A stretch of 27,446 nt of DNA from Nodularia chucula CCY0103 (GTDB taxonomy: Bacteria; Cyanobacteriota; Cyanobacteriia; Cyanobacteriales; Nostocaceae): positions 1-27,446 of the forward strand of contig NZ_CAWUOL010000071.1 in the NCBI RefSeq assembly GCF_963923915.1, given 5' to 3'. Below the pieces are notes generated by a model. That model did no database searches and was not told the DNA's origin. It was given only the letters and a program-made list of their open reading frames with translations. Made by a program: the position numbers and the translations under genes. Below, piece after piece: positions 669 to 27,446 of the stretch (its first letter is position 1; the number at the start of each line of letters is the position of its first letter).

Positions 669-3600
669 ATGGAATCAGGATCGGCATTCTTATTGCATAA
701 TTTTTTATCTTCCCAATATATACCTCATGGACATTGCTATCTGTGGCAAAAGCCTCTGGTAGCCTTACATTTGCTGAGTGATGCGTTGATTGCGATCGCC
801 TATTTCTCCATTCCCATCATGCTCATCTACTTTGTCAATAAGCGCAGCGATATTCCCTTTTCCAAAGTATTTCTCTTATTTGGCGCGTTTATTATCCTCT
901 GTGGTACAGGACACTTGATGGATATATGGACTCTCTGGCATCCAGATTACTGGTTATCAGGCATCATCAGAGCGCTCACAGCCTTAGTTTCTTGTTATAC
1001 GGCATTGCAACTGGTGGAACTACTACCACAATTTTTAGCATTGCGATCGCCCGAACAATTAGAAGCCATCAACCAAGAACTCCAAATAGAAATAGAAAAA
1101 CGCAAAAGCACCGAAAAAACCCTAGAAATGATCGTTGCAGGTACAGCTTCTGTCACTGGGAATGATTTTTTCCCTGCCTTAGTAGAGAATTTGGCAATGG
1201 CATTAGATGTCACTTATGCCTTCGTTTTTCACACTCTTGATAATTCCTTACAAAAAGTTAAAAGTATTAATTTTTGGGCAGTAGATCATATAGGAGAAAA
1301 CTTTGAATATGAACTAATTAACACCCCCTGCCAAAAAGTGATTCAGCAGAAAATGCTTTGTGCATATAGTAGTGGATTGCAAGATGTTTTTCCTGACAAC
1401 TTATTATTAGAGCAGTTAGAGGCAGAGAGTTACATAGGTGTCCCCTTACTGGACTTAAACGAAAATGTTATTGGCAACCTGTGTATTGTCGATGTTAAAC
1501 CCCTAGAAATCAGCGAACGTACCAAAACACTATTACAAGTTTTTGCAGCACGCGCTTCTGTAGAACTGCAACGGAAATGGGCAGAAGAAGAGAAAAAGCA
1601 GGCTTATGAACAACTAGAATTTCGAGTAGAAGAACGCACCGCAGAACTTGTGGAAGTTAATCACACCCTCGAAAGCGAAATTCAAGAAAGAATTGCCACA
1701 GAAGCCGCAATGAGGGTAATGGCAGAACGGGAAAAAGCCACCAGCCATATCATTCAGCAAATGCGTCAAAGTCTGAATCTGGAATCCATTTTCCAAGCAA
1801 CCACCGCCGAATTACGTCAAGCCGTAGAATGCGATCGCGTCTTAATTTATCGCTTTCAACCAGACTGGAGTGGAGAACTAGTTGCTGAATCTGTATCCAC
1901 ACCTTGGCGTTCTGTGATTCCAGCATCAGATCAAAATAGCAAAATCATAGAAGTAGCCGTAGATCACAACAACTGTTCAATTTTTGAACTAGCCGACTCC
2001 AACGGCATAATCCGTGAGACTTACTTCCAGGAAAACGACGGCAAAATCAGTAAAGAACAATCCACCTATTACTGTGTTAATGACATTTACACCGCAGAAT
2101 TTGATAACTGTTATCTCCAACTATTAGAACAATTACAAGCACGCGCTTATATCATCGCTCCTATTTTCTGTGGTCATCAACTTTGGGGCTTATTGGCAGT
2201 TTATCAAAATGGCACACCACGACAATGGCAAAATCCAGAAATTCAGATTGTTACCCAAATTAGTAATCAACTGGGAGTAGCAGTACAACAGGCGGAATTA
2301 TTTTTCCAAACCCAAGAACAAGCCGCAGAACTCAAAATTGCTAAAGAAGCAGCTGATGCCGCCAGCCTCGCCAAAAGTGAGTTTCTAGCCAATATGAGCC
2401 ACGAATTACGCACTCCACTCAACGCCATTTTAGGTTTTACCCAATTGATGCAACGAGATCAAACCTTGACTCCAGAACATCAGAGATACACAGAAATCAT
2501 TAACCAAAGTGGCGAACATCTGTTAGGGCTAATTAATGATGTTTTGGAAATGTCCAAAATCGAAGCCGGCAGAATGATTTTATGTGAATCAGAATTTGAT
2601 TTGCATGACTTACTGCATAATTTGTTAGCCATGCTGCAATTGAAAGCTATTTCCAAAGGCTTACAACTAACATTTGATTTTGAGCCAACCATACCCCAAT
2701 ACATTAAAACTGATGAACACAAGCTGCGTCAAATCCTAATTAATTTATTGGGTAATGCCATCAAGTTTACTAAAAAAGGACAGGTAACTCTCAGAGCTAA
2801 GTACCAGCAATTACCTGGAAACTCTCAATCAGGATTACCCAAAATACACCATCTATTTTTTGAAATTGAGGATTCTGGAGATGGGATTGCCTCAGAAGAA
2901 ATTGGTCATCTATTTCAAGCATTTCAGCAAACACGCTCAGGACAGCAATCCAAAGAAGGAACAGGTTTAGGATTAAGAATTAGTCAAAAATTTGTGCAAT
3001 TAATGGGTGGTGAAATAACTGTAGAAAGTCAACTAGGTAAAGGCACTTGTTTTAAGTTTAATATTCAAATTGATGTCCCGAAAATTTTACCCATTGACAA
3101 ATTATCCTCTCCCAATTTGGAGAACATTAGTATTGCCACTGGACAAAGTAATTATCGCATTTTAATCGCTGAAGATAATCCTGCCAATCGATTATTAATG
3201 AATAATATCTTGAGCCGTTTTGGTTTTGCTGTGCAGGAAGCAGAAAATGGACAAGAGGCGATCGCACAATGGCAAGAATGGCAACCTCATCTGATCTTCA
3301 TGGATATGCGGATGCCGATTATTAATGGTTATCAAGCAGCGCGGCAAATTCGTGACTTGTCCGCACAATTAAACCATCACAACGGAGAAATTTCCACACC
3401 GACAAAAATTATTGCTCTCACAGCCAGCGCTTTTACCGAACAAAAGCAAGAATGTTTAGATGCAGGTTGCGATGATTTTGTCAGCAAACCATTTCGTTGG
3501 GAAGAAATTTTAGAAACCCTAGCCCAGCATCTAAAATTAGAATACATATATGAAAATACAACCATAACTGAGACTTTCCCTACAGCTAATTACATCCTTG

Positions 3601-3815
3601 ACAGCGCATCTCTAGCCATTATGCCAGCTAGTTGGATTACCGAATTACACCTAGCCGCAGCCCAAGGAAACGATAGCACTAGTCTGGAATTAGTGGCTCA
3701 AATTCCTGCTGAAAACACAGGTTTAATCGCCGCTTTAACTCAATTAATTGAAACATATCAATTTGATCAGATCATAGAACTTACACAAGTCGTAAATTTG
3801 TCAGAAAAGTTATGA
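669..3815 (+). CDS. Hybrid sensor histidine kinase with an N-terminal ETR1-type ethylene-binding domain (EBD-GAF-GAF-HisKA-HATPase-REC)
   Basis: 1048-aa ORF. aa 35-120 ([53 protein letters not shown]...[18 protein letters not shown]) aligns almost residue for residue with the three-helix ethylene-binding domain of Arabidopsis ETR1 as I recall it ([24 protein letters not shown]...[20 protein letters not shown]...LTAVVSCATALMLVHIIP). The Cu(I) ligands are present: Cys78 (nt 900-902) and His82 (nt 912-914), equivalent to ETR1 C65/H69. D38, Y45, I48 and P49 match D25, Y32, I35 and P36. Downstream domains: GAF (aa ~160-300), coiled coil, phytochrome-like GAF (aa ~366-545), H-box SHELRTPLN (His578, nt 2400-2402), HATPase boxes [12 protein letters not shown] / DSGDGI / GTGLGL, REC (Asp879, nt 3303-3305), and a ~110-aa tail of unknown function. 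Confidence 0.9.
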   Translation: [1048 protein letters not shown]

Positions 3816-7865: not shown

Positions 7866-7977
7866 TTTTTTCGATCCTTTTTGATTTCTAATACATAGTT
7901 AAGTGTTACAGCAAAGCGGAGATCGCAAGAGGATTCAAAACATTTTATTTTTGAATTACGAATCCCGCCTAGCTGTA

Positions 7978-8568
7978 TTAGCCACTGGTCTGTTCTGTTT
8001 CTACTAAGTCTTCTGGACGAGAACCAGCACGAGGCGCATCAGCAGGTAGGTTGTGAGGTTCCATGACTCCTTTGGGTAAGTAAGCGAGTTCGCGCAGTGG
8101 TGTAACCATTGGGTCATTGGTGACTTTGTAAGGTAGACGACCTAGTGCTACGCTGTCATAGTTGAGTTCATGGCGATCATAAGTAGATAGCTCATATTCT
8201 TCTGTCATTGATAGACAGTTAGTTGGGCAATATTCTACACAGTTGCCGCAAAAGATACAAACTCCAAAGTCAATGCTGTAGTGTTTGAGTTTTTTCTTTT
8301 TGCTGGCTTTCTCAAATTCCCAATCGACGACGGGGAGATTGATGGGACAAACCCGAACACAGACTTCACAGGCGATACATTTATCAAATTCGTAGTGAAT
8401 CCTACCGCGAAACCGTTCGCCAGGAATTAGTTTTTCGTAAGGATATTGGACGGTGACAGGGCGACGCTGCATGTGGTCAAAGGTAACGGCTAATCCTTGG
8501 CCGATGTAACGTCCGGCTTGTACTGCTTCTTTGGCGTAATCACCGACTTGTTTGAGGAACTTTAGCAT
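7978..8568 (-). CDS. ndhI: NDH-1 subunit I (2x[4Fe-4S] ferredoxin-type)
   Basis: 196-aa ORF with two CxxCxxCxxxCP motifs: [12 protein letters not shown] and [12 protein letters not shown]. Confidence 0.95.
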
Positions 8569-14288: not shown

Positions 14289-14786
14289 TCAAAGACCAAT
14301 TACATATTTTTGCCACTCGTTATGTAGTCCACTCTTGAGATGTTTACTCACCTCAAAATAAAGGCTACTATAAGGTTGCCTTGGAGGATGACGCAAAGGC
14401 ATATGGGCTTCGTAGGGTGTGCGGTTCCCTTTTTTGACATTACAACGGACACAGGCTGTAACAATGTTTTCCCAGGTGTCGCCTCCCCCACGCGATCGCG
14501 GTATTACATGATCTAATGTTAATTCGTCCCCGGTATAACCGCAGTACTGACAGGAGTGGCTGTCACGGTGCAGGATATTTCGGCGAGTGAGAGGAATTTC
14601 CTTGTAGGGTACGCGCACGTAATGGCGCAACCGAATTACAGTCGGTAGAGGAAAATCTGAATACAGAAACTTACCATTATGCTCTATGCGTTCCGCTTTG
14701 CCTTTAATGAGCAGAATCGCAGCTCGTCGCCAACTAGTGATGTTGAGCGGTTCGTAAGACGCGTTTAGGACTAAAACCTTCCCCAT
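14289..14786 (-). CDS. Small stand-alone HNH endonuclease
   Basis: 165-aa ORF with CQYCG...LTLDHVIPRSRGGGDTWENIVTACVRCNVKKGNRTP (HNH with a Cys4 zinc scaffold). Confidence 0.9.
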   Translation of the reverse strand: MGKVLVLNASYEPLNITSWRRAAILLIKGKAERIEHNGKFLYSDFPLPTVIRLRHYVRVPYKEIPLTRRNILHRDSHSCQYCGYTGDELTLDHVIPRSRGGGDTWENIVTACVRCNVKKGNRTPYEAHMPLRHPPRQPYSSLYFEVSKHLKSGLHNEWQKYVIGL

Positions 14787-16550: not shown

Positions 16551-16580
16551 ACCTCCAAGAATTATTTCTTGGAGGTTTTA
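16551..16580 (+). terminator. Intrinsic terminator after tRNA-Leu
   Basis: ACCTCCAAGAA-TTA(T)-TTCTTGGAGGT, a perfect 10-11 bp stem followed by TTTTA. It starts 18 nt after the tRNA. Confidence 0.75.
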
Positions 16581-16769
16581 ACTTTACATATATTTTTTGT
16601 TGCCAAAGTATTAATATATTTGAACTCCTCACCTTTGGATACTCTGGGAGTCAGGAGAAAGAAGATAGTATGCGATCGCCTTACCCCCGATTTCTCACAA
16701 AGAAATCAAAAAAAGGGGTCAAAAACTGCGAAAATGTATATATACAAAGCATTTCAGCAGTTAAAAAGC

Positions 16770-17281
16770 ATGACCCCAATCATAACAGATTGTATACCAA
16801 AACAGTTCACTTTTGAACAAGAAAAATTACCGCCAGTAGTAGTAAATTTCCAGGGTGGGTTAGTCACATCTGATGCCGGATTAAGCTTAATTGCGGATAT
16901 AGATCGAAAACGGCAAATCACATCAAGATTAGCTCAATGTTTCCAAGATTACCGAGAGCAGAATCGCAGTTTACGTCATGATCCAATGTTTGCTTTAGCT
17001 CTAAAAAAAAGAATAGGTCAAAAAAAATCAACCCGTTATATTGGCAGGTAAAAGTACATTTATCGGTTACATTTTAATGAATGCGTTACGAAGCCAATGT
17101 TTGGTTAAAACCGAATTACAAAATGCTCAAGTTGGAACTATATGGCTACGCCACGCTACGCGAACGTACCAAATTATTGAAATTAGGAGCATTGATTACT
17201 GTGAGTACGCGGCGAGTTTTAATTGTGATTAATAGTTCTTGTCCCTACAAGCATATCTATGCTGCTGCCTACCGTCGCTGA
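16770..17281 (+). pseudogene. Internally deleted IS1380-family (DDE_Tnp_1_4-type) transposase remnant; non-autonomous IS derivative
   Basis: Three frames carry pieces of one transposase. (1) The N-terminus MTPIITDCIPKQFTFEQEKLPPVVVNFQGGLVTSDAGLSLIADIDRKRQITSRLAQCF.DYR (compare the IS1380 F.GG.LTS.AGL.LL motif). (2) LRHDPMFALAL and LAGKSTF. (3) The extreme C-terminus TELQNAQVGTI / KLLKLGALITVSTRRVLIVINSSCPYKHIY. The whole catalytic DDE core (about 300 aa) is missing. Element ends were not determined. Confidence 0.65.
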
Positions 17282-25145: not shown

Positions 25146-25180
25146 GAGGATGTTTTAAAAGTTTTGGGCGAATATAATAG

Positions 25181-25312
25181 AGCCTCCGGCACGCTACGCG
25201 AACGCTACTACACAAGCAAAGTCAACCTCCGTGGACTAATGAAAAATCGAGGTTTTCAACCCGCGCAGGCGGGTTTAGTTTGTGTAGCCGCGACTTCTAG
25301 TCGCCAGGGCTA
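25181..25312. repeat. Decayed copy B of the same MITE family (right arm intact)
   Basis: GGTTTTCAACCCGCGCAGGCGGG (25251-25273) matches copy A at 20/22 in the same orientation. The hairpin AACCCGC-GCAG-GCGGGTT follows. TAGCC-GCGAC-TTCTA-GTCGC-CAG-GGCTA (25285-25312) is the inverted counterpart of the copy A hairpin. The left part carries CACGCTACGCGAACG (25190-25204), also seen at 17152-17166. Confidence 0.6.
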
Positions 25313-25406
25313 GTAATAATCGATACTGTAATAAATTAGACTTTTTTTCTCTGTTGAGAAGTGGTTATACTGAGTAAAATAAGTATAATCTCTGAATATT
25401 ATTGAT

Positions 25407-25862
25407 ATGGAACCAATAACAGCTGCTGCGATCGCCACCCTAGTTTTTTCAGAAGCCTTGAAGGAAGGGGGAAAAGCTTTAGGTAAAGGGGTTTCAGAAC
25501 AAGTTGCTCAACTATTGAGTGCAATTAGGCAGAAATTCCAAGCGGCGGGAATGGAAGGACTACTGAAAAGAGCCGAAGAAAATCCTACAGAAAAGAATAC
25601 CTCAAAGTTCCAGGATGAACTGGAAACGCAAATGGAGGAAGATGCAGCTTTTGCTAATCGGTTGCAAGAACTGATGACCCAGCTAAAAGCCAATCAAACC
25701 ATTAATCAAATAGTCCTCAAGGGAGTCAAGGTACAGGGTAAAGCCAAGGTAGGCGATATAGATTTGACCGCGACAAGAGAGGGTGCAGTGAATCAAGAAG
25801 CGCTGGTTGATTCTCAATTTGGTGATGATCTTGACCTTGGCAATATCAACATGAAGGCTTAG
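25407..25862 (+). CDS. Small helical Bell/HeLo-like putative membrane-targeting effector with a C-terminal double 21-residue amyloid-like motif
   Basis: 151-aa ORF. It has a hydrophobic N-terminal helix (PITAAAIATLVF), a Gly-rich turn (GGKALGKG) and about 95 aa of charged helical sequence. The tail is N/Q/G/V/D-rich and holds two pseudo-repeats (aa 99-119 and 128-148). The ORF stops 4 nt before the NB-ARC gene. The functional call is an inference from architecture. Confidence 0.6.
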   Translation: MEPITAAAIATLVFSEALKEGGKALGKGVSEQVAQLLSAIRQKFQAAGMEGLLKRAEENPTEKNTSKFQDELETQMEEDAAFANRLQELMTQLKANQTINQIVLKGVKVQGKAKVGDIDLTATREGAVNQEALVDSQFGDDLDLGNINMKA

Positions 25863-25866
25863 GATC

Positions 25867-27063
25867 ATGAGCGAAAATCGCCCTAATCCTGAGCAAATAC
25901 GGCAGAACGCCTTTGAGAATGTTCAAGCCCGTGATATAAAAATTGGAGTCTTTAACCAGTCTATAAATCTGGGCGAAACTTCCCAAGCCATTGGTATTCC
26001 GCAAAATTTACCCCTGAGTGGGGTGGTGAAATTTGTGGGACGTGATGAAGAACTGCAAAAACTCCACCAACTTTTACAGGAAAATCACCAAGTAGCCATT
26101 GCTGCGATCGCGGGAATGGGTGGACTGGGTAAAACAGAACTCGCCTTGCAATATGCAATGAGTCAGCGCGACACCTACAAAGGTGGACTGTGCTGGTTAC
26201 AACCGAAAGCTGAGGATGTGGGCGTTCAACTGGTGCGATTTGCCAGAACTCAGCTTGATTTAGAACTACCAAAAGATTTGGTGGATTTACCCGCACAAGT
26301 GCAATTCTGCTTGCGGAATTGGCGTGAGGGTGATGTGCTGCTAGTGGTGGATGATGTCACAGATTACCAGCAAGTCAAAACTTACCTAAATGGGCTATCT
26401 TCCAGATTTAGAGTGTTGATGACTACGCGCCAACTCTTGGGTGCATCCATCAAGCAATTACCTTTGGATGTATTACAACCAGAAGCAGCCTTGGAGTTGT
26501 TACGGTCTTTGCTGGGAGAAACACCAGAGCGAATTGATAGAGAATTAGATGTAGCAAATCAGTTGTGTGCATGGCTGGGATATTTACCCTTGGGTTTGGA
26601 GTTAGTGGGGCGGTATCTGGCGAGGAAACAGGATTTATCCCTCTCGAAAATGATGGGGCGCTTGGATAAAGAGCGATTAGAACAAGCTGCACTTGTTAAG
26701 CTCGACGATGACAACAAAGAAAAATTGGGAGTGAAAGCAGCCTTTGAGTTGAGTTGGCAGGAATTAGCAGAGGATGATCAGCAATTAGGCTGTTTAATCA
26801 GTTTATTTGCAGCTGCACCCATACCCTGGAAATCAGTAGAACAGTGCCTACCAGAAGATGATGAGGAAGATTTAGAGAAAATTCGGGACGATAAGCTGCT
26901 GTATCTGCATTTACTCCAGCGCAAAGGTGAGGGAATCTATCAATTACATCCACTGCTGCGGGAATTTTTCCAGTCTAAGCTTACAGGTTTAGAGCAGGTA
27001 GAGGAATTTAAGCGATCTTTTTGTCAGGTAATGGTAGCAGTAAGCGATCTTTTTGTCAGGTAA
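25867..27063 (+). CDS. NB-ARC (STAND, NLR-type) NTPase module, truncated by a frameshift; the N-terminal 30 aa carry the motif shared with the upstream protein
   Basis: 398-aa ORF. Motifs: FVGRDEELQKL, Walker A GMGGLGKTELA (nt 26113-26136), Walker B VLLVVDDV, LMTTR, GYLPLGLELVG (GLPL-like). It terminates at TAA 27061-27063 inside the second copy of a 32-bp tandem duplication. Confidence 0.85.
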   Translation: MSENRPNPEQIRQNAFENVQARDIKIGVFNQSINLGETSQAIGIPQNLPLSGVVKFVGRDEELQKLHQLLQENHQVAIAAIAGMGGLGKTELALQYAMSQRDTYKGGLCWLQPKAEDVGVQLVRFARTQLDLELPKDLVDLPAQVQFCLRNWREGDVLLVVDDVTDYQQVKTYLNGLSSRFRVLMTTRQLLGASIKQLPLDVLQPEAALELLRSLLGETPERIDRELDVANQLCAWLGYLPLGLELVGRYLARKQDLSLSKMMGRLDKERLEQAALVKLDDDNKEKLGVKAAFELSWQELAEDDQQLGCLISLFAAAPIPWKSVEQCLPEDDEEDLEKIRDDKLLYLHLLQRKGEGIYQLHPLLREFFQSKLTGLEQVEEFKRSFCQVMVAVSDLFVR

Positions 27064-27072
27064 TGGTAGCAG
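27009..27072 (+). repeat. Perfect 32-bp tandem duplication (2 x TAAGCGATCTTTTTGTCAGGTAATGGTAGCAG)
   Basis: Copy 1 is 27009-27040 and copy 2 is 27041-27072, identical at 32/32 when compared base by base. 32 is not a multiple of 3, so the reading frame shifts. Confidence 0.95.
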
Positions 27073-27446
27073 TCGCCCAAGAAATTCCTCACACCCCCAC
27101 ACTTGAGGAAATTAATGCTGTTTCCCTTGCCATACCTCATATAGCTGAAGTAGCAAATCATCTGATTCAATACGTTTGTGATGAAGATTTATATTGGGTT
27201 TTCTTCGGCTTGGGTAACTTCTATGAAGGACAAGGTTTGTATATCCTAGCCGAACCTTGGAGACAGCAGTGTTTATCAACCGCACAAGACCGCTTGGGAG
27301 ACAATCATCCCGATATCGCCGCTAGCCTTAACAACTTGGCAGAACTCTACTGTTCCCAAGGAAGGTACGACCAAGCCGAATCCCTGTATCTCCAAGCTTT
27401 AGAACTCTTTAAACGCCTGCTGGGAGACTATCATCCCAATATCGCC
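27063..27446 (+). CDS. TPR-repeat (kinesin-light-chain-like TPR_12) C-terminal part of the same NLR gene, in the +2 frame; runs off the right edge
   Basis: The frame is open from 27012 to the window end, with ATG at 27063-27065 overlapping the upstream TAA (TAATG). Hand translation: MVAVAQEIPHTPTLEEINAVSLAIPHIAEVANHL...FYEGQGLYILAEPWRQQCLSTAQDRLGDNHPDIAASLNNLAELYCSQGRYDQAESLYLQALELFKRLLGDYHPNIA. Confidence 0.8.
   Translation, partial: MVAVAQEIPHTPTLEEINAVSLAIPHIAEVANHLIQYVCDEDLYWVFFGLGNFYEGQGLYILAEPWRQQCLSTAQDRLGDNHPDIAASLNNLAELYCSQGRYDQAESLYLQALELFKRLLGDYHPNIA

Follow-up and report, generated by a model that had tools for sequence, protein, structure and literature searches.

In Podospora anserina, the HET-S/NWD2 pair couples a membrane-targeting helical effector, which ends in two pseudo-repeats of about 21 residues (the HRAM motif, HET-s(218-289)), to an adjacent NLR with one further copy, R0, at its N-terminus. 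Bacterial gene pairs of a related kind were described by Dyrka et al. 2020 (bioRxiv 10.1101/2020.01.06.895854), who defined the Bell domain as a helical domain of about 100 amino acids (aa) whose first helix is hydrophobic and whose residue 2 or 3 is acidic. The same authors reported Bell proteins of about 120-140 aa from filamentous bacteria and ten families of bacterial amyloid signalling sequences (BASS), which are common to the C-termini of Bell proteins and the N-termini of NLRs from adjacent collinear genes, often no more than 10 bp apart (bioRxiv 10.1101/2020.01.06.895854). Prions and fibrils have been reported for BASS1 and BASS3, in which NLR-side motifs convert those on the Bell side; together with BASS11, these are the only families for which amyloid or prion formation and transfer of the fold to the effector have been shown. 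Among bacterial systems, only Bab/Agp (BASS11) of Escherichia coli, which is an amyloid-triggered antiphage abortive-infection system, has had its biological role demonstrated (bioRxiv 10.1101/2024.11.07.622273). Here we analyze a gene pair at the end of a 27,446-nucleotide (nt) stretch of Nodularia chucula CCY0103 (contig NZ_CAWUOL010000071.1 of assembly GCF_963923915.1, positions 1 to 27,446), hereafter the window. The locus is likely to be a Bell-domain effector and NB-ARC-TPR NLR pair of the BASS4 family, operating by the amyloid-signalling mechanism proposed for such pairs.

The effector gene (25407..25862, + strand), identified from its open reading frame (ORF) and translation, encodes 151 aa, with a predicted Bell-type helical domain followed by a C-terminal double BASS4 motif, and its product is identical by exact look-up to WP_414529697.1 of N. 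chucula. The NLR gene is collinear with it, after an interval of 4 nt. As now readable from its ORF and Pfam matches (25867..27063, +), it encodes 398 aa comprising an N-terminal motif and an NB-ARC domain (aa 60-272, Pfam E = 4.1e-15), and it is shortened by a frameshift. The Walker A motif, or P-loop, of the NB-ARC domain reads GMGGLGKT in translation (aa 83-90; 26113..26136, +) and stands at the same position in orthologs. The effector C-terminus consists, in order, of INQIVLKGVKVQGKAKVGDID (aa 99-119), LTATREGA, VNQEALVDSQFGDDLDLGNIN (aa 128-148) and MKA, and aa 11-30 of the translated NLR read IRQNAFENVQARDIKIGVFN. An earlier inspection of the locus by a model that saw the letters and their translations (the sequence-only reading) had proposed these three segments as two effector copies, r1 and r2, and one NLR copy, r0, of a single motif, and its placement of all three proved exact.

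Published data sets tie the pair to BASS4. Cluster C06 (ucluster_06) of the PMC8086366 data set, which is BASS4 according to the README of that data set, holds the string NETINQIVLKGVKVQGKAKVGDIDLTATREGA from A0A218Q5G9_9CYAN, with which r1 is identical at 31 of 32 positions. The same string is present in GAX37122.1 of Nodularia sp. NIES-3585, a protein that matches the window effector at 148 of 151 positions (98%). NLR-side entries in the cluster include PEEILQSILQNVQVGGNLTTGNITQTII from OYD94772.1 (PMC8086366), and the Nostoc pair OYD94771.1/OYD94772.1, orthologous to the window pair, is given as bass_04 in Table S2 of Dyrka et al. (bioRxiv 10.1101/2020.01.06.895854). With the BASS4 pairs of Dyrka et al. 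2020 the window pair shares the motif family, a Bell protein of about 150 aa, a collinear gene with NB-ARC and TPR domains that starts only a few nt further on, and a filamentous cyanobacterial host; it differs from them in its frameshifted NLR and in a one-residue deletion within r0. The motif common to effector C-terminus and NLR N-terminus is found at the level of the family and is weak in the window pair alone. Table S2 of Dyrka et al. contains neither the window Nodularia pair nor its NVQARD variant of r0, and part 1 of 2 of the BASS4 file lists r1 of the window clade but not r2. That the motif is repeated on the Bell side is on record in an earlier paper (PMC8086366). The motif family, the logic of the gene pair and the doubled effector motif have been in the literature since 2020-21, and the window pair is one more example of them.

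The N-terminal domain of the effector (aa 1-96; 25407..25694, +), delimited by AlphaFold2 helices and invariant residues, begins with MEPITAAAIATLVF and has a hydrophobic N-terminal helix. Helices are predicted at residues 6-13, 16-19, 27-47, 50-58, 62-78 and 80-96, and the block-mean predicted local distance difference test (pLDDT) lies between 87 and 95 across aa 31-90. Residue E2 is invariant in the 44 aligned homologs, as are A6, A17, G22 and G26. Pfam, NCBIfam and PADLOC hold no Bell model, the effector matched no Pfam family, and a profile search of PDB sequences returned no homolog of the full-length protein. The predicted domain agrees with the published description (about 100 aa, all-helical, hydrophobic first helix, acidic residue 2/3), and we regard it as Bell-like on that basis. 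The effector homologs found, 59 in number, are all cyanobacterial, nearly all 151-154 aa long, and most of the named ones belong to Nostocales. Their alignment shows conservation of about 55 C-terminal residues, with Q101 and Q130 nearly invariant. Three homologs (P0025, P0054 and P0057 in alignment A1) show that the N-domain evolves separably from the double motif at the C-terminus. P0025 has 76% identity in the N-domain and 31% in the motif region; in P0054 and P0057 the N-domain shows 21-26% identity and the motif region 75-77%. These values suggest that effector heads and amyloid tails have recombined.

The evidence for a shared motif comes from the family. Of the 28 genomic loci of effector homologs that we fetched, 25 have a following gene, in most cases after 2-5 nt, that begins with a motif of the r0 type. 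Across these 25 loci the partner N-terminus follows the consensus phi-x-Q-x-phi-F-x-N-V-Q-x-G-G-N-phi-x-phi-G-x-phi-x-Q. A hidden Markov model (r0-HMM) was built from 21 partner N-termini of other genomes; it contained no effector sequence, and the window and its two closest relatives were excluded from it. This model matches the full-length window effector at two sites only, aa 99-118 (shuffle p = 0.0085) and aa 130-148 (p = 0.001), and scores the window r0 at 31.2 bits (E = 7e-12). Conversely, a profile of effector r1 and r2 reaches up to 19 bits against the partner N-termini, exceeding 6 bits in 15 of the 25, as against a maximum of 1.7 bits over 125 other ORF N-termini in the fetched loci. 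Comparison of profiles with hhalign in global mode gave P = 9e-5 for r0/r1, 1.7e-4 for r0/r2 and 6e-7 for r1/r2, all in the register of the sequence-only reading. Taken at the level of the family, these sequence comparisons clearly exclude chance as the origin of the shared motif. They also bear out the expectation that homologous pairs would keep the matching NLR N-terminus, the terminal motif being shared at 25 loci.

The r0 motif also heads partners that lack NB-ARC (L021:6471-9077, L022, L024, L025:5455-8088; L016:6540-8564; L013:6730-8067; L014:6461-6976; L020:559-1074, in the numbering of the fetched loci). These include proteins of about 870 aa with no match to a Pfam domain or to the Walker A pattern (GxxxxGK[ST]), others with TPR-like repeats and stretches that by eye appear hydrophobic and resemble membrane helices, and proteins of 171 aa. 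Their sequences hint that BASS4 effectors may be wired to several sensor types.

On the effector, r1 spans aa 97-122 (25695..25772, +; core aa 99-119 at nt 25701-25763) and r2 spans aa 126-151 (25782..25859, +; core aa 128-148 at nt 25788-25850), both delimited by the r0-HMM, hhalign and predicted strands. The NLR-side r0, delimited by the r0 profile, spans aa 9-34 (25891..25968, +; core aa 11-30 at nt 25897-25956). The AlphaFold2 model of the effector, built on the 44-sequence alignment and with a mean pLDDT of 80, places strands at residues 99-105, 112-115 and 118-121 in r1 and at 128-134, 141-144 and 147-150 in r2. The strand pattern is identical in the two repeats, with an offset of exactly 29 residues, and the two-rung C-terminal unit is predicted in the effector monomer with pLDDT 66-82. 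The effector motif accordingly measures about 26 residues and has a 29-residue period (phi-x-Q-x-phi-phi-x-x-phi-x-phi-x-G-x-phi-x-phi-G-[DN]-phi-x-[QL]), and the connector between rungs amounts to about 3 residues (REG). The sequence-only reading had described repeats of 21 residues separated by an 8-residue linker; with a conserved unit of about 26 residues, about half of that linker is structured. Window r0 represents an NVQ-ARD sub-variant in which one residue of the GG turn is deleted, the site at which that reading had needed an alignment gap. Its central arrangement, two C-terminal copies on the effector and one N-terminal copy on the NLR, holds over more than 20 homologous cyanobacterial gene pairs and is further supported by the strand pattern that AlphaFold2 predicts twice and by the charge covariation of r1 and r2 described below. 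An additional, weaker copy suggested at NLR aa 29-47 was not recovered by the r0-HMM (-0.9 bits, p = 0.31). Only FNQSIN in that segment overlaps the tail of r0, and the remainder is a conserved linker to NB-ARC in relatives.

In-register positions of r1 and r2 carry complementary charges, and their covariation is the strongest new indication that the rungs stack. Over the 44 homologs we counted 159 opposite-charge against 7 same-charge pairs in this register, and 19-66 opposite-charge pairs, mostly with more same-charge pairs, in other registers. The polarity of the pairs varies among homologs, with 19 EK against 10 KE pairs at motif column 12, 19 EK against 12 KD at column 18 and 12 KE against 11 EK at column 26. 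Shuffling r2 among sequences never gives the observed excess of opposite charges (p < 2e-4). Parsimony on a tree built without the covarying columns requires polarity to have flipped independently at least 5 times at column 12, at least 4 times at column 18 and at least 3 times at column 26. In the window, the in-register charge pairs are K112/D141 and K114/D143. Judged by this covariation among homologs, the pattern shows r1 to be in contact with r2. The r0 motif is uncharged at the charge columns (Q in 15 of 21 sequences; neutral, that is T, N, S, Q or I, in 20 of 21; I or T in 20 of 21), and its neutrality at these ladder columns would fit a model in which identical r0 copies stack on one another when the NLR oligomerises and complementary rungs serve the effector. 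We see the evidence as evenly poised on a more specific proposal, namely that the BASS4 double repeat is a bacterial counterpart of the two-rung beta-solenoid of HET-s. It would be held by three to four inter-rung salt bridges (columns 4, 12, 18 and 26; here K112-D141 and K114-D143) whose polarity has flipped at least 3-5 times, with r0 neutral so that identical copies can stack. A prior statement of the r1/r2 covariation was not found in the literature searched, and the charge-swap covariation may be the one result of this analysis that goes beyond that literature.

Inter-rung salt bridges are reportedly a feature of the HET-s solenoid, whereas in BASS4 they are deduced from covariation. The layout common to the window pair and HET-S/NWD2 is accompanied by differences: the effector domain is Bell and not HeLo, the NLR is of NB-ARC-TPR and not NACHT-WD type, the host is a bacterium, and the connector between rungs has about 3 residues in place of the long flexible loop of HET-s (6-15 aa in HRAMs). 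Pfam returned no HeLo/Hell domain in the window effector and no HET-s or RHIM match in the r0, r1 and r2 segments at E <= 10, and a search of PDB sequences with the double-repeat profile found no HET-s or HELLF chain. The resemblance to HET-s/NWD2 put forward in the sequence-only reading is one of architecture, and it does not extend to a sequence or fold match detectable by Pfam, the PDB profile search or Foldseek.

In Bab/Agp, too, the effector is small and Bell-related and has an amyloid motif at its C-terminus; the protein that activates it is encoded by the adjacent gene and bears the same motif at its N-terminus. The system differs in its motif family, BASS11, in the single motif described on Bab, and in its location within a prophage defence hotspot, whereas the window pair has housekeeping and chemotaxis-like neighbours. 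RHIM, fungal PP and BASS3 motifs are comparable to those of the window as short amyloid signalling motifs of cell-death pathways. The core of RHIM is (I/V)Q(I/V)G, and the window segments, which read KVQGK, DSQFG and NVQAR, depart from this (I/V)-Q-(I/V)-G pattern. Many relatives of r0 read NVQVGGN (for example at L004:6467-6570 and in L010 and L012), and the VQVG tetrad in them resembles the RHIM core. In Dyrka et al., BASS3, and not BASS4, is the RHIM-like family (bioRxiv 10.1101/2020.01.06.895854).

By analogy with HET-S/NWD2, BASS1/BASS3 and Bab/Agp, we infer a mechanism in which the TPR array would sense a ligand and the NB-ARC domain would then oligomerise. The identical r0 segments clustered in this way would stack in register and create a cross-beta nucleus, which would template r1 and r2 of the effector to fold as a two-rung beta-solenoid; this solenoid would polymerise, r1 on r2, by means of salt-bridge ladders. 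This conversion would free the hydrophobic N-terminal Bell helix for membrane attack, leading to cell death in abortive infection or in a non-self response.

Several points weigh against this interpretation of the locus. An experimental test of any BASS4 motif was not found in the literature searched, and a 2024 preprint describes what Bell/NLR pairs do biologically as yet to be elucidated (bioRxiv 10.1101/2024.11.07.622273). A Foldseek search of the AlphaFold2 model against the PDB returned nothing at E <= 0.001, the HELLF prion fibril 6eka ranking second with E = 2 and a template modelling (TM) score of 0.29. The window is not an obvious defence island, with ndh genes, citrate synthase and a chemotaxis-like cluster in the flanks, and PADLOC defence models gave nothing meaningful. 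If the alignment of the sequence-only reading is kept as it stands, its sum-of-pairs score of 46 lies far above the -74 +/- 19 of within-segment shuffles, a comparison that ignores the freedom of window choice; when whole termini are shuffled and windows re-chosen, the best gapless triple has p = 0.22, and Smith-Waterman shuffles give p = 0.48 for the effector C-terminus against the NLR N-terminus and p = 0.13 for r1 against r2. The window r0 also reaches only 2.1 bits against the effector profile, a marginal match. Considered on the sequences of the window pair alone, the three-way similarity is not significant when window choice is free. Finally, the pair is probably inactivated in the N. 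chucula genome, its NB-ARC domain having been cut from the TPR sensor, unless the duplication described next is an assembly error.

This probable inactivation raises the possibility that the pair is a decaying remnant in N. chucula, with an NLR that has lost its TPR sensor and a motif geometry that persists as a fossil, so that no signalling takes place there. The lesion is a perfect 32-bp tandem duplication (AAGCGATCTTTTTGTCAGGTAATGGTAGCAGT in two copies, 27010-27041 and 27042-27073, together 27010..27073), which shifts the NLR frame and brings in a premature stop at 27061-27063. Beyond it, the NLR continues in another frame as TPR repeats that run past the end of the window (27045..27446, +; Pfam TPR_12, 4e-30, and TPR_10, 1e-18). 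Orthologous partners are uninterrupted NB-ARC and TPR_10/TPR_12 proteins of 696-1215 aa. The duplication site is single-copy in the orthologs of a Nodularia metagenome-assembled genome (MAG; L001) and of Anabaena subtropica (L002), and the duplicated 32-mer was not found in the two loci of Nodularia sp. NIES-3585 (L029, L030). The continuation of the window NLR is collinear with the uninterrupted NLR of NIES-3585 at 91% DNA identity. Against decay, the effector ORF, r0, the P-loop and the remaining NB-ARC domain are all intact and 90% identical to the NIES-3585 ortholog. The duplication is therefore either very recent or an artefact of sequencing or assembly. Decay, which we consider possible without favouring it, would moreover concern activity in one strain only and not the nature of the system. 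In the NIES-3585 ortholog itself, a run of N lies within the TPR region (L029:~7950-8010), and the "534-aa" and "92-aa" gene calls made there consequently reflect an assembly gap and not a real split of the gene.

The main rival on mechanism retains the motif and dispenses with prion-like polymerisation. It holds that r1 and r2 form a stable two-rung beta-solenoid in the native monomer and that r0 docks on it as the third rung, the effector being recruited or held in this way within a 1:1 or oligomer-limited complex. AlphaFold2 does fold the C-terminus of the monomer as a two-rung unit at the pLDDT given above, the connector of about 3 residues makes for a compact unit, the r1-r2 contact derived from salt-bridge covariation could be purely intramolecular, and the literature searched contains no amyloid data for BASS4. 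The edges of a two-rung solenoid would nevertheless be open, and the charge pattern also favours intermolecular stacking of r2 on r1. The uncharged ladder positions of r0 are those expected if identical copies must stack, fibrils and prions are known from the related families BASS1, BASS3 and BASS11, and BASS motifs occur in gene pairs of the same kind. On balance we regard soluble docking as unlikely.

The shuffles of the window pair in which windows are re-chosen speak for a third explanation, namely that the three copies are unrelated and that short, compositionally biased segments resemble each other by chance, a risk that the sequence-only reading had itself acknowledged. The family-level tests refute it. 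In column-permuted hhalign controls the real alignments stand at z = 12.8, 15.5 and 15.2, the real score being reached in 0 of 120 permutations; the effector-free profile finds exactly the two predicted sites; and the motif heads the partner in 25 loci and none of the 125 control N-termini. The shuffle test of the three-way alignment thus has a divided outcome, in which the window pair alone falls within the shuffled range (p = 0.13-0.48) and the family-level profiles support the alignment, and chance as the whole explanation is hardly credible. Equally implausible is a function of the effector in regulating transcription or as an accessory protein of gas vesicles, which the name "Fis family transcriptional regulator" on some homologs (NCBI, UniRef) and a weak NCBIfam match to GvpT/GvpP (E = 3e-4, 21 bits against a cut-off of 80) might imply: we judged the name to be annotation noise and the match spurious, no helix-turn-helix or Fis domain of Pfam appears even at E <= 1, and the constant pairing with a downstream gene bearing the same motif would be left unexplained.

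The surroundings of the BASS4 pair differ between genomes. Homology to the NIES-3585 locus (L029) starts 51 nt upstream of the effector start (window position 25356), and the Nodularia MAG (L001) shares only 59 nt upstream of the effector. The flanks are unrelated, with a CheA-type kinase in the window and P450/BMC/HetZ genes upstream and HicAB downstream in NIES-3585. As homology begins only about 50 nt ahead of the effector gene and the flanks differ, the pair behaves as a cassette. Conserved synteny was considered as a functional clue and set aside, since the flanks differ even between Nodularia genomes. Among plasmids, distant homologs of the effector (33-39%) occur on those of Nostoc only, and no homolog was found in phage genomes.

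Upstream of the pair, the window contains genes for an ethylene-receptor-like hybrid histidine kinase of 1048 aa (669-3815, +; ETR1_N at 1.7e-42, then GAF, HisKA, HATPase and receiver domains), ndh genes, citrate synthase, alanine racemase, an HNH endonuclease (14289-14786, -), a DDE transposase fragment of 160 aa (16569-17051, +) and a chemotaxis-like cluster that ends in the CheA-type kinase. The endonuclease gene and the transposase fragment, which separate the housekeeping genes from the chemotaxis-like cluster, are signs of past mobile-element activity. The intergenic region between the CheA-type gene and the effector (25164-25313) holds a GC-rich hairpin (25258-25275, AACCCGCGCAGGCGGGTT) and a spurious-looking ORF of 49 aa. 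The hairpin is present as a single copy in the window and in none of the fetched loci, and it resembles either a short repeat element of cyanobacteria or a terminator.

For genome annotation, the analysis turns two genes that would be called "hypothetical" or be misnamed into a recognisable cell-death/immune module. The charge-swap covariation of r1 and r2, together with a neutral r0, provides sequence-level evidence that would favour a HET-s-like stacked fold in a BASS family. If the proposed two-rung solenoid is correct, it would yield a sequence rule that parts "template" motifs, which are homotypic with neutral ladders, from "responder" motifs, which are heterotypic with charge-complementary rungs, and it would point to a convergent or very ancient architecture common to fungal and cyanobacterial cell-death switches.

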